Shown in pieces: positions 507-17,281 of a stretch of DNA of 64,000 nt; the first letter of the stretch is position 1, and each line of letters begins with the position of its first letter. A program made the position numbers and the translations under genes. The stretch lies in the sequence record NC_052654.1; one strand, written 5' to 3'. Source of the DNA: Escherichia phage vB_EcoM-Ro121c4YLVW. The notes under the pieces were generated by a model, which worked only from the letters and a program-made list of their open reading frames with translations, had not been told where the DNA came from and did not search any database.

Positions 507-660
507 AAAAGAGTATGTCCGCATTCCACGAGAATTAACAGATCACATTGCAGAAGCAATAGCTTTCGAAGCTAGATGTTGTGGAGGTATTGCTTACGAT
601 ATTTATGAAGCAATTATTAAAGCTGCTCAAGAAGAGGAGGAGATGAATAATGGGTATTGA
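496..660 (+). CDS. hypothetical small acidic protein
   Basis: ATG after GGAGG; 54 aa; overlaps neighbours by a few nt. Confidence 0.35.
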   Translation: MESEKEYVRIPRELTDHIAEAIAFEARCCGGIAYDIYEAIIKAAQEEEEMNNGY

Positions 661-976
661 TATCGAATGGCGTATGTTACAGGGTGCACCATATGATAAA
701 TGGAAAGAAATATTTGGAGACGACCCACAAGTTGAAGACCAGTTCGATGGGGACTTTAATTGGTTTCTCTGCGAAGGTTTGGGCTTGGAAAACATTTCCC
801 CGTGGTACGATGCAGATCCTGAAGATTGTGTCTTCGGTGTCAAGCTGTGTAGCGGCTGTGGTGCTTGTGCCATAGACCTCACAAGCTTAAATAAAAAAGC
901 GAATGAGATCTATTTTGAACTGCTTAATAAGTATAATATTGAAACTGAAACATTAGTATCACAAAACGTCTGGTAA
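650..976 (+). CDS. hypothetical protein
   Basis: ORF track 108 aa; RBS GAGGAGGAG upstream. Confidence 0.5.
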   Translation: MGIDIEWRMLQGAPYDKWKEIFGDDPQVEDQFDGDFNWFLCEGLGLENISPWYDADPEDCVFGVKLCSGCGACAIDLTSLNKKANEIYFELLNKYNIETETLVSQNVW

Positions 977-985
977 GGAGAACTG

Positions 986-1978
986 ATGCGCTATCTGGTA
1001 ACAGGTGGTCTTGGTTTTATTGGGAGTGCCGTGGTGCGCTCTCTTTGTCAAGATCCTAATAACGAAGTTTTTGTCGTTGATAAGATGAGCTATGCAGCAG
1101 ATATTGAGAATGTAGGCGATATCACTCACGTTAAACTAAGCATGACAGATTTGGCAAACGAAGCCCAAGTAAAAAGTTTAGTAGTAGAGTGCAATCCCGA
1201 TTTCATCATTCACTTAGCGGCAGAGAGTCATGTGGATAATTCTATCAAGAATCCACGAGTTTTCATCGACTCCAATATTATTGGTACATACAATTTATTG
1301 GAAGCTGCAAGGCTCCTCCCAAAGAATAAACTGAAGATGTTCGTACACGTCTCCACAGACGAAGTGTACGGCGATATGGCAGACTCTGGCGTTCCCTTTA
1401 CCGAAGAGACAGCTTATGCCCCTTCAAGCCCATACAGTGCGTCTAAGGCAGCATCTGACCATCTTGTGAAAGCTTGGCACCGTACCTACGATTTGCCTGT
1501 TGTGATAACCAACTGCTCCAATAACTTTGGACCTTATCAACATCCAGAAAAGCTGATCCCAAAAATCATCACAAGTATTTTGACGAATAAAGAGATTCCG
1601 GTGTATGGTAAAGGCGATCAGGTGCGAGACTGGCTTTTTGTTGAGGATCATGCGAGAGCTATTCTTCAAGTGGCAACAGGTGGAGAACCAGGCCAAACGT
1701 ATAACGTTGGAACACGTAATCCCAAAACCAATATGGAGATCATCTATATGGTTTGTGACTACATGGATGCTGTACATCCAGAAGCAGGAACCTACCCTTC
1801 TTCCAACTTGATAACTTTTGTTGAAGATCGTAAAGGACATGACTTGCGTTATGAAATCAATCCTTCTAAGATAGAGTCTGAACTGGGTTGGAGTGCAAAC
1901 TCTACATTTGAACAAGATCTCTACTCAACGATTGAATGGTACTTAAACAACCCTCAATGGTGGAGTGAGAAGATTTAA
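986..1978 (+). CDS. rfbB: dTDP-glucose 4,6-dehydratase
   Basis: N-terminal TGGxGFIGS Rossmann motif, STDEVYG and YSASK (YxxxK) motifs typical of RmlB. Confidence 0.85.
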
Positions 1979-1986
1979 GGAGGGCT

Positions 1987-2865
1987 ATGAAAGGTATTAT
2001 TTTGGCTGGAGGAAGTGGAACCCGCCTTCATCCGGTAACACGCAGCGTGAGCAAGCAATTGCTCCCTGTGTATGACAAACCCATGATCTACTACCCTTTA
2101 TCGGTATTGATGTTGGCTGACATTAAGGATATCTTAATCATCACCACACCAGGCGATCAGGAAGACTTTGAGTATCTTCTCGGAGATGGGTCTATGTTTG
2201 GGATAAAACTCACTTACGCAATCCAATCCGAGCCACGAGGTCTTGCGGACGCTTTCATCATCGGTAAAGATTTTATCGGAGAAGACTCTGTTGCTCTTAT
2301 TTTAGGTGACAACCTATTCTTCGGACAAAGCTTTGGTAAACTACTGATTAACGCCAGTGAGATGGTAGATGTTTGGGGCGGAGCTTGTATCTTCGGGTAT
2401 TTGGTGAAAGATCCTGAACGATTCGGTGTGGTTGAATTTGGGAGTAATCGTCAAGCTATTTCTATTGAAGAGAAACCTGAAAATCCTAAATCAGATTACG
2501 CTGTCACAGGTTTGTATTTCTATGATAACTCTGTTGTTCAACGTGCATTAGAAGTAACCCCTTCCGCGCGTGGAGAACTGGAGATCACAGATATCAATCG
2601 CAGCTACCTCGAAGACAGGAAGTTACAAGTGGAAGTTCTCGGACGAGGATTTACTTGGCTTGACACAGGAACACACGCCAGTCTGATGGAAGCTGGTCAA
2701 TTCGTGCAGACTATTGAGAACCGGCAAGGATTGAAGATTGCGTGCCTGGAAGAAATTGCTTTCAAAAAAGGGTGGATTTCTTTAGAGACTTTGGTGTATC
2801 ATGGAAACTCACTGAAGAAAACAGAATACGGGCAATACCTACTCAAATTAGCGGAGAGAAAATGA
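1987..2865 (+). CDS. rfbA: glucose-1-phosphate thymidylyltransferase
   Basis: [16 protein letters not shown]...[17 protein letters not shown]-terminus typical of RmlA. Confidence 0.85.
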
Positions 2866-3428
2866 AAGTAGAAAAAACAAAAATTGAAGGTGCGGTAATT
2901 ATCAAACCAGACGTTTATAAAGATGATCGTGGTTTCTTTTTAGAAACATATAATGAACAAAAATACGAAGATATTATTGGTAGACAAACTTTCGTTCAAG
3001 ATAACATGTCTAAATCAAACTTCGGTGTTTTGCGAGGAATGCACTTTCAAACAAATAATCCGCAAGGTAAGCTTGTTCGTTGTGTAAGTGGGGAAGTATT
3101 GGATTTCGCTGTAGACCTACGTAAAGATAGTCCTACTTACGGTGCTTGGGACGGTGTTGTTCTTCGTGCACGACACCATACACAGTTCTGGCTTCCACCT
3201 GGTTTGGCACATGGTTTTATAGTGTTGAGTATGGATGCTATCTTCGAATACAAATGCACAACTCCATACGACCCTTCCAGCGAACAAAGTTTACGTTGGG
3301 ATGATCCTGATATAGGGATTGATTGGGGCTTCGATATGATTTTTGACGAAGATTTTAAACCTATCTTATCAACAAAAGATGCAATGGCTAAGTCTTTTCA
3401 ACAGCTACGTAGCGAGGGTGTATGCTAA
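2862..3428 (+). CDS. rfbC: dTDP-4-dehydrorhamnose 3,5-epimerase
   Basis: RmlC-like cupin with RGMHFQ motif; ATGA overlap with rfbA; start chosen at internal ATG after RBS. Confidence 0.8.
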
Positions 3429-4264
3429 CATATCTGGTATTGGGCGGTAATGGACAACTGGGACAAGCTTTACGTAAAGTGGCTCCTTCAAATGTATCTT
3501 TAATTTATCCTAAAGAACGTGTAGATATTACAAATTTTGAAGCTGTGCGAAACGCTATTGTTGAAGATTATGTAGATGGTGTTATTAATTGCGCTGCTTA
3601 TACGGCTGTAGATAAAGCAGAACATGATTTTGCTACTGCTTTGGCTGTTAATTCCTACGGCCCTGCAAACATTGCAGCAGTGTGCAGTAAACTTAAAATT
3701 GATTTTGTGCATATTTCTACAGACTATATTTTTAATTACTCTCATCCTATTTTTGAAGATACTACACCTAACCCAATAAACAATTATGGGTATACGAAAG
3801 AACTTGGTGAAAAAATGGTGCGAGGAGTTAACCCAAATGCATATATTATTCGAACAGCCTCGGTATATAGCGAATTTGGAAATAACTTTCTAAAAACCAT
3901 GTTGTCTCGCTATAATGATGGACAACGTGATTTTATTATTGTTGCTGATCAGTTCTCTTGTCCAACATATGCTCCAGATTTAGCAGAAGCTATTTTTGAA
4001 GTATTAAAAACAGGTTGGTCAAGGTCTGTTAAGACTTACCATTTTGCAGGAAGCCATCTTATTTCTTGGGCGGAGTTTGCGGAAAAGATCTTGACACAGA
4101 TGCCAGAACCTGTTAAGATATCGGCGGTATCAGCTTCAACCTATAATGCTCCAGCAGCACGTCCGGTGAAGTCACAATTAGTAACCAGTCACTATCTTAC
4201 AAAATCAGATTTAAATAAAGGTATTGAACGGTCTTTAGCAGTATTACTTAATAAGGAGAGGTAA
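3422..4264 (+). CDS. rfbD: dTDP-4-dehydrorhamnose reductase
   Basis: LGGNGQLG N-terminal Rossmann motif, length and position after rfbC. Confidence 0.75.
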   Translation: MLTYLVLGGNGQLGQALRKVAPSNVSLIYPKERVDITNFEAVRNAIVEDYVDGVINCAAYTAVDKAEHDFATALAVNSYGPANIAAVCSKLKIDFVHISTDYIFNYSHPIFEDTTPNPINNYGYTKELGEKMVRGVNPNAYIIRTASVYSEFGNNFLKTMLSRYNDGQRDFIIVADQFSCPTYAPDLAEAIFEVLKTGWSRSVKTYHFAGSHLISWAEFAEKILTQMPEPVKISAVSASTYNAPAARPVKSQLVTSHYLTKSDLNKGIERSLAVLLNKER

Positions 4265-4524
4265 TGGAATTTGTAATTTTTGGTAAACCTAACTGTCAAT
4301 TTTGCGAAATGTCAAAACAACTATTAACCATGCGCAATAAACAGTTTGAATATTTAAGTCTTGACCAAGACTACGATTTAGAATCAATGACTAAAACAGT
4401 TGTTGATCTTACCGGAGTTCCTCCACGCACATTTCCACAAATTCTGTCTGAAGTGAACGGGGAGGTAACATACGTAGGCGGTTTTACCGAACTGCGTGAT
4501 CTCATGGCTCAAATTGCGGAGTAA
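4264..4524 (+). CDS. glutaredoxin/NrdC-like thiol-disulfide protein
   Basis: CQFC redox motif near N-terminus, about 86 aa, similar architecture to T4 NrdC. Confidence 0.55.
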   Translation: MEFVIFGKPNCQFCEMSKQLLTMRNKQFEYLSLDQDYDLESMTKTVVDLTGVPPRTFPQILSEVNGEVTYVGGFTELRDLMAQIAE

Positions 4525-4529
4525 CACTT

Positions 4530-4679
4530 ATGAAAAGTAAACAGAAACGTAAGATCTTTTCTCGTGCTTTGGCAAATGAGCTGAAGTCCAACATAAAGAA
4601 AACGAAACCAAAACGTGAAACTTCTCCAGAACATCTGTTGTTTAATGAGTTGGATCACGGAGTAGGAGACGACGAATAG
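4530..4679 (+). CDS. hypothetical small basic protein
   Basis: 49-aa ORF filling gap between glutaredoxin and lysozyme genes. Confidence 0.3.
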   Translation: MKSKQKRKIFSRALANELKSNIKKTKPKRETSPEHLLFNELDHGVGDDE

Positions 4680-4686
4680 GAAGTAA

Positions 4687-5187
4687 ATGGCTAAAGTAGT
4701 AGATGAGTTTGATATGCTACGAGTCGATGAAGGACTGAAGCTTACTGTTTATCAAGACCATCTTGGTTATTGGACAGTCGGCATAGGACACCTTCTGACT
4801 AAAATAAAAGATAAAGCAAAGGCTATTCAAATCTTAGATAATCTCCTTGGTCGTAAGACCAATGGAGTTATCACAGAAAAAGAAGCCCGTCAAATCTTTG
4901 CTGACGATGTTGCAAAAGTGAAGAGAGACATAAAAAACAGTGCTATCTTATCACCAATCTATGATAAGGTGAGTGATACTCGTAAATTGGGAATAATCAA
5001 CATGGTTTTCCAGTTGGGGTTAAAAGGTGCTGAAGGGTTTAAAAATAGCTTGACTTTAATCAGCAATGCATATTATACTCAAGCAGGTAAAAACATGCGT
5101 AAAAGCCGATGGTATAGCCAGACGCCAAACCGTGCTGAACGAGTAATTAAAGTTCTGACTTCTGGAACTTTAGATGCTTACAACTAA
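4687..5187 (+). CDS. T4-type lysozyme (endolysin)
   Basis: DEGLKLTVYQD...GYWTVGIGHLLTK...NMVFQLG...AKSRWYSQTPNRAERV closely parallels T4 gene e lysozyme. Confidence 0.9.
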   Translation: MAKVVDEFDMLRVDEGLKLTVYQDHLGYWTVGIGHLLTKIKDKAKAIQILDNLLGRKTNGVITEKEARQIFADDVAKVKRDIKNSAILSPIYDKVSDTRKLGIINMVFQLGLKGAEGFKNSLTLISNAYYTQAGKNMRKSRWYSQTPNRAERVIKVLTSGTLDAYN

Positions 5188-6018: not shown

Positions 6019-6519
6019 ATGGGTGTAGCAACAATAGCTATCGGAAGAAGCGGTATAGATGAGTGCTATCAAACGGGACTCGTAAAACCTAACGAATTTC
6101 GTCAAATTTGTGTAAACCATATTGAAAAAGAGATTGCTCTTACTTTAGAGAATATGACCCTCCGAGATAAACTGGAAATGTTTAAATGTTGGTGTCTAGG
6201 AGAAGATTGGCTTTTAAACCATTTTCAAGAACTTTCTGATAGTAAAGAAAGCTTGTTTGATTGTATAATAGGAATAGCTGGCTCCGATCCTAGCCTTCTG
6301 CACATAACAGAAGAAGAGGCGAAGTTACTGTTCTTAAGTAATTTGTTTAATAAGAAAGCACTGCTTGTTCGTGATTGTAGTGATCTTCTTAATAACCCGC
6401 TCGCAACGTCTGATCAAATTTTTGTTGACAAAGAGACACTACGTGCGATAGAATACATCTGCAAATATGTGAATGGCGGGAAAGCGGTTCTTAAAACATT
6501 AACAGAGGAGGAAGAATAG
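6019..6519 (+). CDS. hypothetical protein
   Basis: ORF track 167 aa; RBS AAGGAGG. Confidence 0.5.
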   Translation: MGVATIAIGRSGIDECYQTGLVKPNEFRQICVNHIEKEIALTLENMTLRDKLEMFKCWCLGEDWLLNHFQELSDSKESLFDCIIGIAGSDPSLLHITEEEAKLLFLSNLFNKKALLVRDCSDLLNNPLATSDQIFVDKETLRAIEYICKYVNGGKAVLKTLTEEEE

Positions 6520-7211
6520 TGACGACAATTATTGCAACCAAAAATAAGATTTTGAGTGACGGTAAGGTAACTTTTGGTGGACGTGTAGATTCTATTAATT
6601 TCAAAAAGGTCCGAAAAATTGGAGATTACCTTGTAGGTGGTGCTGGTCGTCTGACCTCCGTGCTTTCTTTCTTTCAATGGTTTGAACAAAATCTACAGTG
6701 CGAAGCAGCACGTGATGCTGTCCCTGGTTTGATGATTCACTCTGATCCAGATAAAGAAGATGAAGAGTTTATTGCACTTGTTGTTCATCCAGACGGACGT
6801 ATTTTCCTGCACGAAGGTAATAACCCAACACGTGCATATCCGATTGATGAAGAATATTATGCGGTAGGAAGCGGGTCAGACTTTGCTTTAGCTGCTCTTG
6901 ATGCAGGGGCAACACCAGAACAGGCTATGGAAGTAGCTAAAAAGCGAGATGCTTTTTCTGGTGGTGAAACATTTATTGAAGAACAAGACGAGATTATTGA
7001 ATTAACAGATGATGATTTAGAAAACTTCTCCAAAGAAGAATTGATCAATCTTTTGAAATTCGGTAATCCCTACGGTGAAGAAGAACCTCGTAACGTGGCA
7101 GGTAACGAGGCGGATACTGAAGAAAAATCTGTTGCAGAAAACAACTTGACTTCTAAATCTGAAAATATTAATCTCGTAAATGTGGCGGATTTCGAAGGAA
7201 CCGCTATTTAA
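6519..7211 (+). CDS. HslV-like (proteasome beta-like, Ntn-hydrolase) peptidase with acidic C-terminal extension
   Basis: N-terminal MTTI (Thr after Met), GGAG and AVGSGSDFALAAL motifs as in HslV; GTG start after GGAGG. Confidence 0.65.
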   Translation: MTTIIATKNKILSDGKVTFGGRVDSINFKKVRKIGDYLVGGAGRLTSVLSFFQWFEQNLQCEAARDAVPGLMIHSDPDKEDEEFIALVVHPDGRIFLHEGNNPTRAYPIDEEYYAVGSGSDFALAALDAGATPEQAMEVAKKRDAFSGGETFIEEQDEIIELTDDDLENFSKEELINLLKFGNPYGEEEPRNVAGNEADTEEKSVAENNLTSKSENINLVNVADFEGTAI

Positions 7212-7256: not shown

Positions 7257-7691
7257 ATGTTACAAGTTCCTGCTAAGTTTGTTGAAGGCGCTATCCACTC
7301 TTACCGTCAAACATGTAAGAGGGCAAGAAACTGTTTAGATGGTCTGGTGGCAAAAACCTATACTGTTGAAAAGAAGAAACGTTGGTTTGGCAAAGATGTT
7401 TACGAAGTTAATATTTTTGGTGAACATAAACTAAACCACGATACTCCTGAAAACATGTTAGAAATATTTCTAAGAGATGACAAAATATCTCCTATGGATT
7501 ACCAACTTTTAAAATTTTATGATTCTTCTTTGGCTATTGATAAGTTTGTTGAAGATATTCTGTCTAGAAAAACAGATAAAAACACTTATCCTCTAGAGGC
7601 TGATCAAATAGGATTATTAAACGAGATTTCATCCTTTAAAGAGTTGGATAATATTACAAAAGAGGAGATTTTAGATGGCATTAGATTATGA
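7257..7691 (+). CDS. hypothetical protein
   Basis: ORF track 144 aa. Confidence 0.5.
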   Translation: MLQVPAKFVEGAIHSYRQTCKRARNCLDGLVAKTYTVEKKKRWFGKDVYEVNIFGEHKLNHDTPENMLEIFLRDDKISPMDYQLLKFYDSSLAIDKFVEDILSRKTDKNTYPLEADQIGLLNEISSFKELDNITKEEILDGIRL

Positions 7692-8184
7692 TCGCCCAAC
7701 GAGCGATTATTATCCGACACCGCAAAAAGCAATCAATAGTTTGTTTAGTGTTATAGATTTCAAAAATCTAAAGGAAGAAGGTTGGGTTTTTGCAGAACCT
7801 TGCAGAGGTGAAGCTGAAGCGATTTATCGCCATTTTCCTGAAGGTTCAGAATATTGCGAACTTGAAGAAGGTAAAGATTATTTTAGTCATGAATGGGAAA
7901 ATCGTCCCGACATTATAATCACAAATCCTCCATTTAAGTTAGCAATGGAGTTCTTGGAAAAGAGCTTAAAAGAGGCGGATGTTTGTATTTATCTTCTTCG
8001 GTTGGGCTTCTTGGAGTCAAAGAAACGACGAGAGTTCCATCAAAAGAATCCACCAACAAACCTTATAGTCCTTTCAGAACGGCCTTCGTTTGTTGCAGGT
8101 GGAACAGATAAGACAGCATACGCTTGGTATGTATACGACCCAAAGAATCGTTTGGGCCTCTCTCAACCATTTTATTTTGTTTAA
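7675..8184 (+). CDS. SAM-dependent methyltransferase, N6-adenine DNA MTase-like
   Basis: DYYPTP and catalytic NPPF motifs. Confidence 0.5.
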   Translation: MALDYDRPTSDYYPTPQKAINSLFSVIDFKNLKEEGWVFAEPCRGEAEAIYRHFPEGSEYCELEEGKDYFSHEWENRPDIIITNPPFKLAMEFLEKSLKEADVCIYLLRLGFLESKKRREFHQKNPPTNLIVLSERPSFVAGGTDKTAYAWYVYDPKNRLGLSQPFYFV

Positions 8185-13269: not shown

Positions 13270-14211
13270 ATGGTGTTAATTGGTAGCCGTGCATTGCAAA
13301 TTCATGCTATGGACATGGGAAAAGACTTGTATCGCCCTTGTGTAGATTTAGATTACCTGTGTACAGAACAAGAGTGGGAAGAATTATCAAAAATGTTCTC
13401 TCAAGAGGAGTTTGTTGAACTTGTAGAACGTAAAGGAAACAAAGGCCATGTCAAAATGATAGCTGGTGCACATTTGGAATACGATATTGCTTCTCAAGGA
13501 GATAGCACAGAAGCTTTGATTAGTTATTGTGAAGATTCTGATGATGTTCGTCGAACTTACGCTGGACATGTTGTTGCTCCTTTAGATGTGCTCTACCTTC
13601 TTAAAATGAGTCATCGTTTTAAAAAGGATAGTCCTCACTTCTTTAAAACTATGAAAGATATTCATTTCATGCGGTCACTGGGCGCAAAGATCCCAGAAAA
13701 TCTTAAGAGTATTTATGAGTTGCGTGAGAAAGAAACATACACTTACTCTCATCCGAACTTAAACGTAAAAAGTAAAGACTTTTTTAAAGGTGATGAGGTT
13801 CCGTATGTTTATGATCATGATTCTATCCATGAAGCAATCGCGGTAATGGATGCTCCGGCATATAAATCTTATATGAAAGATGGAAGTGAAGTTATGACCA
13901 GCAAAGAAAAGTTTTTTGCTCAACCAAAACATGTGCGCCTGTTAGGTGTTTATGAAGAAGCGTGTGTTTTGGCTTTGGAACGTTCACAAATTCCTTTCGG
14001 TGGAGAGATCGGAGGTCCAACCCCTAAGCAAAGTTTTATAATGGCTTTATCTAAAGTCTGCACATCCATCACTAGTGGTTGGTTTAGGGAATATGCTTGG
14101 GAAAACTTTTATGTTGTTATTAAGCTATATGAAAACATGGGCGAAAACGACTATGTTGAACGTTTTAAAGCTAATCAACATGTAGTAAAGCCTTTTGAAG
14201 GAGGTTATTAA
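13270..14211 (+). CDS. hypothetical protein, possibly Pol-beta-type nucleotidyltransferase fold
   Basis: N-terminal GSRAL...DLD resembles the GS...DxD NTase signature (weak); 313 aa. Confidence 0.45.
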   Translation: MVLIGSRALQIHAMDMGKDLYRPCVDLDYLCTEQEWEELSKMFSQEEFVELVERKGNKGHVKMIAGAHLEYDIASQGDSTEALISYCEDSDDVRRTYAGHVVAPLDVLYLLKMSHRFKKDSPHFFKTMKDIHFMRSLGAKIPENLKSIYELREKETYTYSHPNLNVKSKDFFKGDEVPYVYDHDSIHEAIAVMDAPAYKSYMKDGSEVMTSKEKFFAQPKHVRLLGVYEEACVLALERSQIPFGGEIGGPTPKQSFIMALSKVCTSITSGWFREYAWENFYVVIKLYENMGENDYVERFKANQHVVKPFEGGY

Positions 14212-14212
14212 T

Positions 14213-14608
14213 ATGTGTGGATATCTTTCAGAAAGTTATTTCAAAGTGACGCACGAGGATTTAGAAAAAGCACGATTGAAACTGACAGCTATTATTGAAT
14301 ACTCTAATACTGTTGATCACAGATTAAAGACTACTAAAGTATCTGTTCCTTGTTGGTTAGGTTTACGGCATAAAATAATGTCTCAACATGACCATGTTGT
14401 TCGAGAGATGCATGGTTGGTGTTGGTTTCACGATGTGGCTCTGCATTTTGGTTATATTACAGAAGAAGAGCATAGATTCTGTGAACTAACATATCGTATT
14501 CCAACCCTTCACGATTTAGATTTGTGGAAGAAAGCAAACGAGATTTTTCTTACAGAAAGTGATTGGCGTAAAGTTATGGCTTGTCTTGAATGGAGGGGTA
14601 ATGAGTAA
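14213..14608 (+). CDS. hypothetical protein
   Basis: ATG after AAGGAGG; 131 aa. Confidence 0.45.
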   Translation: MCGYLSESYFKVTHEDLEKARLKLTAIIEYSNTVDHRLKTTKVSVPCWLGLRHKIMSQHDHVVREMHGWCWFHDVALHFGYITEEEHRFCELTYRIPTLHDLDLWKKANEIFLTESDWRKVMACLEWRGNE

Positions 14609-15284
14609 AACAGTTTTGTCTATGTTTGACGGATCTGGGATCATGGTGTTACGTTATGCCGAAGCAGGTCACAAGTGTTTTTGTGTAAACGCTGATGAAG
14701 GGGATCACGGTAAATACGAGGTTAGGATGGAGCACCCAAACATAACCTATGTGAATGCCTGGATAGATTCTACATTCAACCCTGAAGATCATGGGATACC
14801 TAAACCCGATATTATTTTTGGATTTCCACCTTGCACTATGTTAGCAGGTAGTGGTAGCAAACACGAACGCAGCACAGAGGAATTGGATGAAGCTTTAGCT
14901 AATATTCGTGTAGTGGAAGCTTTGGGTAACAAATATAATGTTCCTTGGATGATTGAGAACCCAGTAGGTAAACTTTCAACCTTATGGCGTAAACCCGATT
15001 TTTACTTTGATCCTTATGAGTATGGTGGGTATTTGTTTGAAGAGGAAGGAAGCTTTCATCCTAAAATGCCTACCCGTGATGGGTATACAAAGAAAACTTG
15101 TATTTGGCACGGCAATGGTTTTGTTCAACCAGTGAAGAAACCAGTAGATCATATAGGCTGCTTCTGGGGTTGGAAAAGCTTAGGTGGAGCTAGTGCAAAA
15201 ACAAAACAACTTAGATCACTAACCGCACGTGGTTTTGCTCGTGCAGTGTTTTTGTCTAACAATCTTCTAGATAAGGAGAAATAA
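14601..15284 (+). CDS. C5-cytosine DNA methyltransferase-like
   Basis: Motif I LSMFDGSG, motif IV FGFPPC, motif VI ENP; start after GGAGGGG. Confidence 0.6.
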   Translation: MSKTVLSMFDGSGIMVLRYAEAGHKCFCVNADEGDHGKYEVRMEHPNITYVNAWIDSTFNPEDHGIPKPDIIFGFPPCTMLAGSGSKHERSTEELDEALANIRVVEALGNKYNVPWMIENPVGKLSTLWRKPDFYFDPYEYGGYLFEEEGSFHPKMPTRDGYTKKTCIWHGNGFVQPVKKPVDHIGCFWGWKSLGGASAKTKQLRSLTARGFARAVFLSNNLLDKEK

Positions 15285-15995: not shown

Positions 15996-16481
15996 ATGTT
16001 TCAAGTAAATGTCAATGTGCATAATAGTTACTCTGATTGTGAAACGTGTGGCTATAATTCATCTAATGTTATTCGTATTAGTGGCGATTTAGGAGAAGCT
16101 TCTTTTGGAGAAGAAGCAAGTTGCTTTAGTGGTATGGATGCAGAATGGAATGATATTGCACATTGGTTAGTGAGCAAACTAAAAGAAAAAGAGAAACCAT
16201 TTCCTACTCTGCTTGATCGTTCTCTTGTGGAAGATGCAGGTAAAGCATATGCAGACTATGCGTATGCAGACGGGAAATATTTGGAAGATGATAAGGCTAA
16301 CCATTTGCTTTATGTTTACTATGAAGCTGAATCTGCCTACGATAATTATTACAGCATGTCTAACATCCTACGTCTGTTTGCAGAGTTTGATATTTATTTC
16401 GAAGTAGAATTTTCAGAAGATGATACTTACGAGTACAATTCTTATGATCCATTTGAGGAGGAAGAATGCCAAGACGAGTGA
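15996..16481 (+). CDS. highly acidic protein (possible DNA mimic)
   Basis: 161 aa, D/E/Y-rich C-terminal half; overlaps Sir2-like start by 16 nt. Confidence 0.45.
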   Translation: MFQVNVNVHNSYSDCETCGYNSSNVIRISGDLGEASFGEEASCFSGMDAEWNDIAHWLVSKLKEKEKPFPTLLDRSLVEDAGKAYADYAYADGKYLEDDKANHLLYVYYEAESAYDNYYSMSNILRLFAEFDIYFEVEFSEDDTYEYNSYDPFEEEECQDE

Positions 16482-17281
16482 TTTTTGTAAGCGGTGCAGG
16501 TTTAAGTGCAGACAGTGGGATTCGAACATTTAGAACAGACACAGATAGTGGTCGTGCTTTATGGGAAGAATATGATTTAGAAGAGGTCTGCGATATTGGA
16601 GCTTTCCAAGCAGGTTATCGTGTTAGAACATCTCCAGATCTTCCAGTGGTCGGTGGTGTAGACGAGAACGGTATGGATTTGTATGCCAAAACACACGAAT
16701 TTTATAACAAAAGACGTGTTGAGCTTAAAGATGTACAACCTAATGCTGCACATATTCAAATAGCAAAGTGGTTTAAGGAATATCCTAACCAAATAGTAAA
16801 CTTGACAACAAACGTTGATGATCTACTAGAGCGAGCAGGTGTAGACAGAGATTCTGTTATTCACGTACACGGATATCTTCCTGAAGTAGTTTACCGTATG
16901 CATCCCGGAGATTACAAAACACTGGTAGATATTGGTTACAATAGTATAAACATAGATGATTATAACTGGGTGAAGCCTAATGTTGTATTTTTTGGTGAGG
17001 CTGCACCTTTGTATGCAGATATGGCTCACTTGTTCGATACTTTGACCATGCAAGATTTGGTTGTAGTAGTAGGATGTTCAAACCAAGTTATCAATTTTAA
17101 TTGGGAATTATTTCCTGCACTTAGTATGGGTACAAAAATGGTTGTAGTTAACCCTGGAGTTAATTACGAAGAAACACTTCTCTATGAAGATCGTGGAGTT
17201 TTTGTTTACCGAGAAAAAGCTGCAACAGCCTTCAGCAATGAAGGTTTCATTAAAATGGTCGAAGACCACTTAAACAAATAA
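16466..17281 (+). CDS. Sir2-like (sirtuin-family) NAD-dependent protein
   Basis: GAGLSADSGIRTFR NAD-binding motif, HVHG and VVVGCS motifs. Confidence 0.65.
   Translation: MPRRVIFVSGAGLSADSGIRTFRTDTDSGRALWEEYDLEEVCDIGAFQAGYRVRTSPDLPVVGGVDENGMDLYAKTHEFYNKRRVELKDVQPNAAHIQIAKWFKEYPNQIVNLTTNVDDLLERAGVDRDSVIHVHGYLPEVVYRMHPGDYKTLVDIGYNSINIDDYNWVKPNVVFFGEAAPLYADMAHLFDTLTMQDLVVVVGCSNQVINFNWELFPALSMGTKMVVVNPGVNYEETLLYEDRGVFVYREKAATAFSNEGFIKMVEDHLNK

Follow-up and report, generated by a model that had tools for sequence, protein, structure and literature searches.

The rml operon and its neighbours

The stretch of DNA analyzed here, 64,000 nucleotides of Escherichia phage vB_EcoM-Ro121c4YLVW (NC_052654.1; hereafter the window), derives from a Phapecoctavirus and shares 98.6% identity with phage KKP 3954. 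Four plus-strand ORFs, free of frameshifts and internal stops, form an rmlB-rmlA-rmlC-rmlD operon. An earlier note, made from the sequence alone, had described a full four-enzyme dTDP-L-rhamnose pathway at this position, phage-borne, intact, tightly coupled, and ordered B-A-C-D. This description was borne out: the ORF list gives the same order on the plus strand, and all four products score above the cut-offs of curated NCBIfam equivalog models, with Pfam in agreement. rmlB (986..1978, plus strand) encodes a dTDP-glucose 4,6-dehydratase of 330 aa (TIGR01181, 431.6 bits against a cut-off of 365.1), and rmlA (1987..2865, plus strand) a glucose-1-phosphate thymidylyltransferase of 292 aa (TIGR01207, 468.4 against 360.65). 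They are followed by rmlC (2862..3428, plus strand), which encodes a dTDP-4-dehydrorhamnose 3,5-epimerase of 188 aa (TIGR01221, 225.4 against 155.75), and by rmlD (3422..4264, plus strand), which encodes a dTDP-4-dehydrorhamnose reductase of 280 aa (TIGR01214, 235.9 against 224.05).

The four proteins were then aligned with solved structures. RmlB retains the GGxGFIGS motif, the TDE triad within STDEVYG, and the YxxxK motif (YSASK) of Salmonella enterica RmlB (1g1a). RmlA, whose closest solved structure is 4ho0 (422.6 bits), retains GGSGTRL, SKQL, LGDN, EEKP, and WLDTG, and its conserved Lys and Asp residues are intact. When compared with 1dzr, RmlC keeps the His (GMHFQ), Lys (GKLVRC), Tyr (EYK), and Asp (TKDA) residues, and RmlD keeps GxxGxxG (GGNGQLG), the Thr of STDY, and YxxxK (YGYTK). 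Hence, neither frameshifts nor loss of catalytic residues, which the earlier note had named as grounds for doubting the pathway, were found in any of the four genes. RmlD resembles the Bacillus anthracis and Clostridium enzymes (~150 bits) more closely than its S. enterica counterpart (104 bits). Comparison with phage phiWec179 gave dN/dS values of 0.03–0.2 for the rml genes (0.035 for rmlB and 0.031 for rmlA), indicative of purifying selection; GC3 is 0.40, 0.42, 0.28, and 0.23 for rmlB, rmlA, rmlC, and rmlD, respectively. Judged by these conserved features, the four enzymes are predicted to be active and to produce dTDP-L-rhamnose.

The earlier note had also claimed overlaps at the gene junctions. 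These exist at rmlA/rmlC (4 nt, ATGA), rmlC/rmlD (7 nt, ATGCTAA), and rmlD/glutaredoxin (1 nt, TAATG), but not at rmlB/rmlA, where an 8-nt spacer, TAAGGAGGGCTATG, separates the genes and, as read from the sequence, holds a Shine-Dalgarno site. The start of rmlC is the ATG at 2862; a GTG further upstream, at 2742, is not the true start. Neither a promoter nor a terminator specific to the operon was found, the counts being no different from those in shuffled sequence (20 versus 15.3 ± 4.5, and 6 versus 4.1 ± 2.2), and the 64-kb window holds no tRNA gene. The GC content of the operon, ~40%, is that of the remaining phage sequence.

Translationally coupled to rmlD is a gene for an 86-aa glutaredoxin with a CQFC motif (4264..4524, plus strand; PF00462, E = 1.8e-9; phrog_22). 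A T4-type lysozyme gene (4687–5187) lies downstream, and an ORF of 49 aa separates the two, so that the succession of glutaredoxin and lysozyme described earlier is correct with this one insertion. The glutaredoxin is probably an NrdC-like partner of the nrdAB products, outside the sugar chemistry; in the reference genome, nrdA and nrdB lie just upstream of the rml region, which places them upstream of the window. Four small abutting or overlapping ORFs (145–976) join nrdB to the rml genes. The last of them (108 aa, 650..976, plus strand) ends 9 nt 5' of rmlB and is conserved in position among relatives; it has no assigned function and no match in Pfam or NCBIfam. Because the operon lies within this string of nucleotide-metabolism genes, with nrdA and nrdB upstream and the NrdC-like glutaredoxin downstream, it is probably co-produced with enzymes that raise dTTP.

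Distribution of the operon and the rmlB-rmlA indel

The operon is not new: over 60 GenBank records annotate it, and it has been discussed in print, the proposed role being glycosylation of hydroxymethylated nucleotides (Olsen et al. 2020, Viruses 12:986, PMC7552041). The rmlB-A-C-D-glutaredoxin order is conserved in Justusliebigvirus (55–71% amino acid identity) and in Klebsiella phage 05F01 (41–68%), that is, across three lineages at 41–71% identity. Recent capture from the host was rejected. Among 5426 Escherichia coli genomes, the best match is 64–67% identical at the nucleotide level and extends over less than 80% of the operon, and the nearest cellular homologues of RmlD, at 40–44% identity, are from Bacteroidota.

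Upon inspection of related genomes, we noted that about one-third of Phapecoctavirus records lack exactly rmlB-rmlA while retaining rmlC-rmlD; rmlC of the type in the window occurs in 63 phage records, only ~40–45 of which have rmlB-rmlA as well. The edges of this indel are two copies of GGAGA on the plus strand, the Shine-Dalgarno sites of rmlB (977..981, left edge) and rmlC (2853..2857, right edge), which lie exactly 1,876 bp apart, the length of the indel. In phages Mt1B1_P17, nepoznato, and WPEC4, the junction reads GTCTGGTAAGGAGAGAAAATG, and the match to positions 600–4700 of the window is 2,225 bp rather than 4,101 bp. The ribosome-binding site of rmlC is still intact after the deletion. 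Variants without rmlB-rmlA, namely Mt1B1_P17 and ESCO37, nevertheless retain the glycosyltransferase (GT) genes described below.

A match of the rffG-rffH type, at 64–67% identity, is present in 5419 of the 5426 E. coli genomes, and the host genes could replace the missing RmlB and RmlA steps. We postulate that the phage cannot do without rmlC and rmlD, whereas rmlB and rmlA might be a detachable cassette that boosts supply, since E. coli already makes dTDP-4-keto-6-deoxyglucose through its enterobacterial common antigen (ECA) pathway (rffH, rffG). Natural isolates without rmlB-rmlA, together with rffG/rffH host mutants, are tools for testing the role of the operon.

Glycosyltransferase genes outside the window

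The earlier note had seen no GT in the window and had called for a search of the remaining genome. Both points proved well founded. A GT hidden within the window was sought and rejected: tblastn with four reference GTs found no homologue there, and no GT is listed where the annotated reference is homologous to the window. The wider search, made in reference genomes and close relatives, found four adjacent genes for soluble GTs outside the window, ~73 kb from the operon in reference genomes and present in every close relative; all four are annotated in vB_Ec-G1. They comprise two GT-A-like proteins (187 and 227 aa) and two GT-B/GT4-like paralogues (~315 aa), and in the reference genome they adjoin primase/helicase genes and an endolysin gene. 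Pfam matches are weak (GT-B and GT-A), and confident AlphaFold models (pLDDT 89.5 and 93.1) have GT-A and GT4-like folds. None of the four has a clear transmembrane segment, the maximal 19-residue Kyte-Doolittle means being 0.76–1.65, although GT2, at 1.65, is borderline against the usual threshold of ~1.6.

The distribution of the GT genes is nearly identical to that of rmlC. When tblastn matches were counted by organism name, RmlC, GT3, GT4, and GT1 gave 104/105/104/105 for Escherichia, 8/9/9/10 for Klebsiella, 5/5/5/5 for 'Campylobacter', and 3/3/3/3 for both Phapecoctavirus and Justusliebigvirus. This co-distribution makes the four GTs the likely consumers of dTDP-rhamnose. However, the rml genes lie apart from the GT genes, so that the two sets are connected only by their phyletic distribution within one subfamily, and common ancestry alone could yield such co-occurrence with no functional link.

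A core of the GT module, GT3 plus GT2, also occurs in the late regions (lysis, packaging, head) of temperate phages: between lysis and terminase genes in a Serratia prophage, downstream of the Q antiterminator and ahead of the lysozyme gene in a lambdoid phage, and between terL and the portal gene in an Sf6-like phage. On one further contig, a related GT-B adjoins a DegT-type sugar aminotransferase. No rml genes were seen near the core of the temperate phages in the 15–20 kb visible, and the module therefore needs no phage-encoded rhamnose supply. A small ORF after GT1 was considered as a partner of the module and rejected, as its conservation is confined to the Stephanstirmvirinae-like clade and the modules of the temperate phages lack it. 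GT3 also shares 25–28% identity over the GT-A core with GTs of cluster F mycobacteriophages (327 Mycobacterium phage records matched).

Possible fates of the activated rhamnose

Our preferred reading, held tentatively and at a little less than even confidence, is that a working rml operon supplies the four GTs and that their acceptor is something other than DNA, with virion proteins as the leading guess. In an infected cell, the operon would turn glucose-1-phosphate and dTTP into dTDP-L-rhamnose, which would most likely serve as the donor sugar of the four soluble phage GTs. The acceptor would more probably be a protein or glycan made late than DNA, perhaps at least one virion protein; its identity is speculative. 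Structural comparison was uninformative in this respect. GT3 has weak matches (TM < 0.5) to STIV A197, vaccinia H3, collagen galactosyltransferases, TarP, and GalNAc-T12, and GT1 matches GT4 enzymes of every acceptor class; these neighbours act on lipids, small molecules, and proteins alike, and the acceptor can therefore not be read from the fold.

Glycans of mycobacteriophage virions are reportedly carried on Ser/Thr-rich C-terminal tails. No such tails were found in the coliphage proteins: Ser/Thr make up 7–23% of the C-terminal 30 residues in the major head, decoration, tube, and sheath proteins, and the portal protein alone reaches 33%. Also counted against virion proteins as acceptors is the position of the Stephanstirmvirinae GT genes, which lie in the replication module and not among head genes. 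In favour of the preferred reading are the late-region setting of the GT core in temperate phages and the similarity of GT3 to GTs of cluster F, since capsid glycans are reported for the cluster F phages Che8 and Rita in PMC11256854 (citing Freeman et al. 2023); our literature search found no report of glycosylated virions in this group of E. coli phages. A bolder version, possible but doubtful in our estimation, is that dTDP-rhamnose made throughout Stephanstirmvirinae, a subfamily of E. coli myoviruses in therapeutic use, feeds a portable GT-A plus GT-B module that glycosylates virion proteins, Enterobacterales phages of the temperate Sf6-like, lambdoid, and HK97-like kinds having the same module. 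To our knowledge, no virion glycosylation system has been described before in phages of Gram-negative bacteria; if true, this would be the first, and natural isolates with and without rmlB-rmlA would be ready genetic controls.

Alternatively, the GTs might remodel the host envelope by adding sugar to lipopolysaccharide core, O-antigen, ECA intermediates, or another envelope glycan. Acting at the cytoplasmic membrane face, they would mask receptors, with superinfection exclusion or the sparing of progeny from adsorption to debris as the benefit. The closest folds of GT1 include PglA, PimA, MshA, and BshA, enzymes whose acceptors are lipid-linked or small molecules, and the GT module adjoins endolysin or lysis genes in four independent phage backgrounds. 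Moreover, these phages carry many glycan-targeting fibres (PMC8594841), and adsorption to debris would thus be costly. Nevertheless, membrane-spanning GTs are lacking, as are a flippase and proteins of the Gtr type, and no homologue of the Gtr O-antigen conversion system (GtrA, GtrB, and an integral-membrane GT) is annotated in the reference genome. Strictly lytic phages have little time to export a new glycan, and the temperate-phage module occupies the late region rather than a classical site of lysogenic conversion. We consider envelope remodelling unlikely, at roughly one chance in five.

Manipulation of host metabolism, with no dedicated phage acceptor, seems distinctly improbable. The operon might drain or buffer dTTP or glucose-1-phosphate, RmlC and RmlD might divert dTDP-4-keto-6-deoxyglucose from ECA or O-antigen, or the phage might top up rhamnose-dependent glycan synthesis of the host. 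The setting amid nrdAB, thyX, and glutaredoxin genes fits such roles, as does the fact that the half that is always kept, rmlCD, acts on an ECA precursor made by nearly all E. coli. On the other hand, long-term purifying selection has acted on a full four-step pathway to a specific donor sugar, and its strict co-occurrence with four GTs is more readily explained by a dedicated product.

Last is the transfer of rhamnose to a modified DNA base, as glucose is transferred to hydroxymethylcytosine in T4, a speculation already published (PMC7552041) and also raised in the earlier note, which pointed to neighbouring methyltransferase-like genes. The rml genes do lie in a nucleotide-metabolism module and the GT genes in a replication module, and 16 of the 17 GT3-family members weakly match TAGT (TET-associated glycosyltransferase), below the gathering threshold (best E = 1e-4). 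These matches are, however, limited to the generic GT-A core at the DxD motif, where GT2 and GT7C models match equally, and GT3 was rejected as a TAGT-family enzyme (PF20691, 19.3 bits against a cut-off of 27.5). GT1 is GT4-like, with neither T4 AGT nor BGT among its top 50 Foldseek matches, and none of the four reference GTs has a Pfam match to the AGT/BGT families. With regard to the methyltransferases, the enzyme at 7675–8184 carries an NPPF motif and is therefore an amino-methyltransferase, not a C5-cytosine enzyme. A short protein of 227 aa at 14601–15284 does have C5-methyltransferase-like motifs (I, IV, and VI), although its match to M.HaeIII is weak (E = 0.08).

The annotation of the reference genome (a 274-gene record) includes neither a hydroxymethylase of the ThyA type nor a TET/JBP enzyme, and its sole thymidylate-synthase homologue is ThyX-like (PF02511 and not PF00303). 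Justusliebigvirus, which shares these gene sets, is described as 'exceptionally susceptible' to restriction-modification systems (PMC8594841), and PMC10269720 gives HincII resistance in only three of 42 isolates (ESCO10, ESCO47, and ESCO58), with none of the isolates of Phapecoctavirus or Justusliebigvirus named among these three. The GT core is also found in small temperate phages beside head and lysis genes, and a literature search for rhamnose-based glycosylation of phage DNA found nothing. Collectively, the ThyX-like synthase, GTs unlike AGT or BGT, and the restriction sensitivity of the sister genus make DNA glycosylation very unlikely.

The operon, being catalogued already, is no new kind of system; the question is why a strictly lytic coliphage makes activated rhamnose. 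Our analysis names the likely consumers, four GT genes, and argues against the published DNA hypothesis. Phage therapy and biocontrol often draw their candidates from phAPEC8-like and phi92-like phages, and a glycan coat on the virion or the infected cell would alter immune recognition, stability, and host range.

Among known systems, bacterial RmlABCD (E. coli and Salmonella rfbBDAC at the O-antigen locus, rffG-rffH at the ECA locus) belong to the same families and have the same catalytic residues. The B-then-A order of rffG-rffH recurs in the phage operon, whereas the gene order of the enterobacterial rfb locus is B-D-A-C and that of the phage B-A-C-D. Furthermore, the phage RmlD is of a non-enterobacterial type, unlike that of E. 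coli and Salmonella. The operons of phAPEC8 and other Phapecoctavirus and Justusliebigvirus phages have the same genes at 96–99% nucleotide identity, and the operon itself is no different; it is the role suggested for it (Olsen et al. 2020, PMC7552041) that our evidence does not support. In T4-type DNA glucosylation, which uses a dCMP hydroxymethylase and alpha/beta-glucosyltransferases, GTs and sugar-nucleotide use are found among early nucleotide-metabolism genes, as here; by contrast, we found no hydroxymethylase and no AGT/BGT-like fold, and the DNA of relatives is restriction-sensitive according to the literature. Cluster F mycobacteriophages such as Che8 and Rita likewise encode soluble GTs, GT3 having 25–28% identity to the GT-A domain of, for example, Ramsey gp106; their virion proteins are said to differ from those of the coliphage in having the Ser/Thr-rich glycan tails, and they are not known to encode a nucleotide-sugar pathway. 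Among cyanomyoviruses with deoxy-sugar clusters, Synechococcus phage S-H68, for example, has rmlB and rmlC homologues (RmlC 41% identity) in a sugar-nucleotide cluster, which differs in including a cytidylyltransferase and a CDP-sugar dehydratase and in adjoining tail-fibre and baseplate genes; no RmlA is annotated there within the stretch examined. Finally, giant viruses, with the UDP-L-rhamnose enzymes of Mimivirus and the capsid glycans of chloroviruses, make their own activated rhamnose and use virus-encoded GTs to build glycans on the virion surface. Theirs is a UDP-linked, two-enzyme route of the eukaryotic type, whereas that of the coliphage is the bacterial, dTDP-linked route of four enzymes.

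Identity and setting of the rml genes

All four dTDP-L-rhamnose genes that the earlier note had placed at 986–4264 exceeded their NCBIfam equivalog cut-offs, namely rmlB (986–1978, +; TIGR01181, 431.6 bits vs a cut-off of 365.1), rmlA (1987–2865, +; TIGR01207, 468.4 vs 360.65 bits), rmlC (2862–3428, +; TIGR01221, 225.4 vs 155.75 bits) and rmlD (3422–4264, +; TIGR01214, 235.9 vs 224.05 bits), and Pfam was consistent with each identity. The junctions had been described as overlapping. Reading the DNA directly, we found this for rmlA/rmlC (ATGA), rmlC/rmlD (7 nt) and rmlD/glutaredoxin gene (TAATG), but rmlB and rmlA are separated by an 8-nt spacer that contains AAGGAGG. Each of these genes has a Shine-Dalgarno site. 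Neither frameshifts nor missing catalytic residues, raised as possible signs of a non-functional pathway, were seen, and the expected catalytic and cofactor motifs are kept: GGxGFIGS, STDEVYG and YSASK in RmlB (aligned to the solved Salmonella RmlB), GGSGTRL with the conserved Lys and Asp positions in RmlA (aligned to 4ho0), the His, Lys, Tyr, Asp set in RmlC (aligned to 1dzr), and GGNGQLG, STDY and YGYTK in RmlD (aligned to solved structures). Against phiWec179, a divergent Phapecoctavirus, dN/dS was 0.035 for rmlB, 0.031 for rmlA, 0.20 for rmlC and 0.11 for rmlD.

Four small abutting or overlapping ORFs (145–976) lead directly into rmlB. Downstream of rmlD lie the glutaredoxin gene and the T4-type lysozyme gene (4687–5187), as previously noted, with a 49-aa ORF between them, and then a PhoH-like gene. 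A consensus scan for promoters and terminators around the rml genes gave counts not above those of shuffled sequence. Given these flanking genes and the lack of a promoter or terminator excess, the rml genes form part of a longer run of co-directional genes and are not an operon contained in itself. The window corresponds to positions 16319→1 and then 149999→104603 of the reference genome vB_Ec-G1, in which a thyX-like gene, a deoxyribonucleotidase gene, nrdA and nrdB lie upstream of the window start. From its position, the glutaredoxin is best read as an NrdC-like partner of ribonucleotide reductase. The order nrdB, small ORFs, rmlB-A-C-D, glutaredoxin, small ORF, cell-wall hydrolase, PhoH is kept in Justusliebigvirus JohannJBalmer (55–71% amino acid identity) and in the deep-branching Klebsiella phage 05F01 (41–68%). 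The acquisition of the rml genes is old.

We also noted other features of the window. All three lineages examined keep, downstream of PhoH, a gene for an HslV-like, proteasome-type peptidase (6519–7211, + in the window; phrog_1040, E=1.6e-63). This lytic phage encodes a Sir2-family protein (16466–17281, +; PF02146, E=1.9e-22; phrog_2162), and a 313-aa protein (13270–14211, +) combines an N-terminal DUF7277 with DUF7275 (E=7.5e-76), both recently defined. Between ~26000 and 50000, identity to vB_Ec-G1 falls to 92–96% in many short blocks with gaps; its counterpart in the reference is a hypervariable accessory region holding dozens of small, mostly unannotated ORFs. The sign of the GC skew reverses near 18 kb and 54 kb, as expected where transcription switches direction.

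The closest record is Escherichia phage KKP 3954 (98.6% identity to the region), and about 60 other records of Phapecoctavirus (subfamily Stephanstirmvirinae) are 96–99% identical, nearly all with the four enzymes annotated. The operon is thus already known and on record for this phage genus, which is well sampled. E. coli matches to the operon were found in 5419 of 5426 complete genomes, all at 60–80% nucleotide identity (64–67% among the matches listed); no match in these 5426 genomes covers 80% of the operon or is a close copy, and most of the matches listed fall in the rffG-rffH pair of the enterobacterial common antigen (ECA) locus. Across 185,579 species genomes, the closest cellular RmlD proteins come mostly from Bacteroidota and are 40–44% identical, and by sequence RmlD is far closer to Bacillus and Clostridium enzymes than to Salmonella RmlD.

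Four records named 'Campylobacter phage' (B15, MG065650; A145, MG065645; C3, MG065656; A110a, MG065689) either show ~98% identity to E. coli Phapecoctavirus or match in the manner of Justusliebigvirus records. Their names or hosts look doubtful, possibly reflecting contaminating coliphages, as do those of 'Acinetobacter phage vB_AbaM_ABPW7' and 'Pseudomonas phage PsgM04F'.

Two halves of the operon

Between the window and phiWec179, amino acid identity is 95% for rmlB and 98% for rmlA, vs 64% for rmlC and 66% for rmlD. GC3 is 0.40, 0.42, 0.28 and 0.23, respectively; with a mean of 0.325 (SD 0.06) for window ORFs, rmlBA and rmlCD therefore fall in the upper and the lower tail, respectively. These two halves make the operon a mosaic, which is a new detail.

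Both rmlB and rmlA are absent from about a third of Phapecoctavirus records: window-type rmlC occurs in 63 records, vs 45 places covering at least 80% of the operon, and RmlA at ≥90% identity occurs in 46 records, the phiWec lineage included. This leaves ~18–23 records without the pair, an approximate count based on the records listed. The junction sequence is GTCTGGTAAGGAGAGAAAATG in Mt1B1_P17, nepoznato and WPEC4. It marks a clean indel of 1,876 bp flanked by two GGAGA pentamers that serve as ribosome-binding sites, one for rmlB (977–981) and the other for rmlC (2853–2857), such that rmlC still has a correct site. MirsaeidiM_Esher1 also lacks the pair, and its different junction indicates at least two events. 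Absence of rmlB and rmlA from ESCO37 has been reported previously (PMC10269720). OZ035771.1 (Phapecoctavirus DIJ07P2) covers 80% of window positions 600–4700 and retains only the last 53 RmlA residues, which points to a third deletion in this gene pair, distinct from the other two. In all cases examined, rmlC, rmlD and the glutaredoxin gene are kept.

The host enzymes RffH and RffG produce dTDP-4-keto-6-deoxyglucose for ECA. As almost every host probably supplies these first two steps (5419 of 5426 genomes matched), the phage rmlBA genes would be boosters that the phage can do without; a host need not provide the last two steps, for which rmlCD would be kept.

Glycosyltransferase genes as candidate users of the sugar

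As the earlier note had observed, the window encodes no glycosyltransferase (GT). It had proposed looking for GTs in the rest of the genome; in the reference genome vB_Ec-G1, four adjacent GT genes (87984–91128) lie on the far side of the map, flanked by primase/helicase and endolysin genes. GT4 (187 aa) has a DTD motif and GT3 (227 aa) a DDD motif, with DDD and ED invariant across its family; GT2 (315 aa) and GT1 (314 aa) are GT-B paralogues. Pfam matches were weak. AlphaFold models were confident (pLDDT 89.5 and 93.1) and showed one minimal GT-A fold and one GT-B fold of the GT4-like type. None of the four has a clear transmembrane segment.

Counted as tblastn matches per organism name, RmlC, GT3, GT4 and GT1 hardly differed, with 104, 105, 104 and 105 matches for Escherichia, 8, 9, 9 and 10 for Klebsiella, five each for 'Campylobacter', and three each for Phapecoctavirus and for Justusliebigvirus. 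KKP 3954 carries the GTs, as do phages without rmlB-rmlA. This phyletic co-occurrence inside one subfamily is suggestive and does not amount to proof.

The GT3+GT2 core also occurs, in some cases together with GT4, as a portable module in unrelated phages. It lies between holin/endolysin/spanin and HNH/terminase/capsid genes in an HK97-like prophage of Serratia sp. M24T3, after the Q antiterminator and before a lysozyme gene in lambdoid metagenomic phages, and between the large terminase gene and portal and capsid genes in an Sf6-like contig. In a further contig, a related GT-B stands beside a GT2, a GT_PLOD-type GT and a DegT-family (by family, sugar) aminotransferase. GT-A and GT-B pairs homologous to GT3 and GT2 lie in contigs L014 (5589–7670, GT4 also present), L015 (9394–10969), L102 (7001–9019, a 152-aa protein between the two GTs) and L103 (6001–9507), where a DegT-family aminotransferase comes after a related GT-B. 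The carriers are temperate HK97-like, lambdoid and Sf6-like phages of Enterobacterales, with the module in the late region every time.

In Stephanstirmvirinae-like contigs L012 (1201–8941), L013 (453–8651) and L100 (1–4006), tellurite-resistance-type genes (TelA, vWA-TerF-like and TerD, with TerC also in L012 and L013) and a gene for a Hydrolase_2 cell-wall hydrolase come before the GT cluster. Outside L102 and L103, a lysis enzyme gene lies within a few genes of the module in most contexts examined, and the rml operon too is followed by a lysozyme gene (4687–5187). This closeness to lysis genes may be only gene-order inheritance.

The acceptor of the sugar

Our leading reading, held tentatively and at somewhat less than an even chance, is that the operon makes dTDP-L-rhamnose, with rmlCD as the essential half and rmlBA as a dispensable booster whose steps host RffH and RffG would also cover, and that the four soluble phage GTs would transfer rhamnose to a non-DNA acceptor, probably virion proteins. 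Two observations count against the virion guess: head, tube and sheath proteins lack Ser/Thr-rich C-terminal tails, and the fold neighbours of the modelled GTs span lipid, small-molecule and protein acceptors. The main rival, remodelling of the host envelope, we consider rather unlikely.

DNA glycosylation, the role proposed by Olsen et al. (2020; PMC7552041), is very improbable: the thymidylate-synthase homologue resembles ThyX, the annotation of the reference genome lists no hydroxymethylase or TET/JBP enzyme, matches to the TET-associated glycosyltransferase (TAGT) family are below threshold and limited to the generic DxD core, and modelled GT1 is unlike T4 AGT or BGT. The relatives in Justusliebigvirus are highly sensitive to restriction-modification (RM), and were described by Maffei et al. 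(2021) as exceptionally so 'despite a putative dTDP glycosylation machinery' (PMC8594841). In PMC10269720, only 3 of 42 isolates (ESCO10, ESCO47 and ESCO58) resisted HincII, and none of its Phapecoctavirus or Justusliebigvirus isolates is named among them. Nor does the neighbouring methyltransferase-like gene, which the earlier note took to fit DNA glycosylation, lend it support: the 169-aa protein at 7675–8184 (+), annotated as N6-adenine-specific in a relative, carries NPPF, as does the methyltransferase beside DNA polymerase, and both are thus amino-methyltransferases rather than C5 enzymes. On the other side, a 227-aa protein (14601–15284, +; phrog_757 'DNA methyltransferase', no Pfam match) has motifs that resemble those of C5-cytosine methyltransferases (I, SMFDGSG; IV, GFPPC; VI, IENPVG), so that a sparse, motif-specific modification may exist; the protein is much shorter than is usual for this class of enzyme and matches M.HaeIII weakly (E=0.08).

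Returning to a non-DNA acceptor, the position of the GT module among late, head and lysis genes speaks for an acceptor, protein or glycan, that is produced late in infection; virion proteins are the most economical guess. A GT3-family profile search returned 1515 cluster representatives, and 327 Mycobacterium phage records hold GTs whose GT-A domain GT3 matches; the ones examined belong to cluster F (for example, Ramsey gp106). Capsid-protein glycans have been reported for the cluster F phages Che8 and Rita (PMC11256854).
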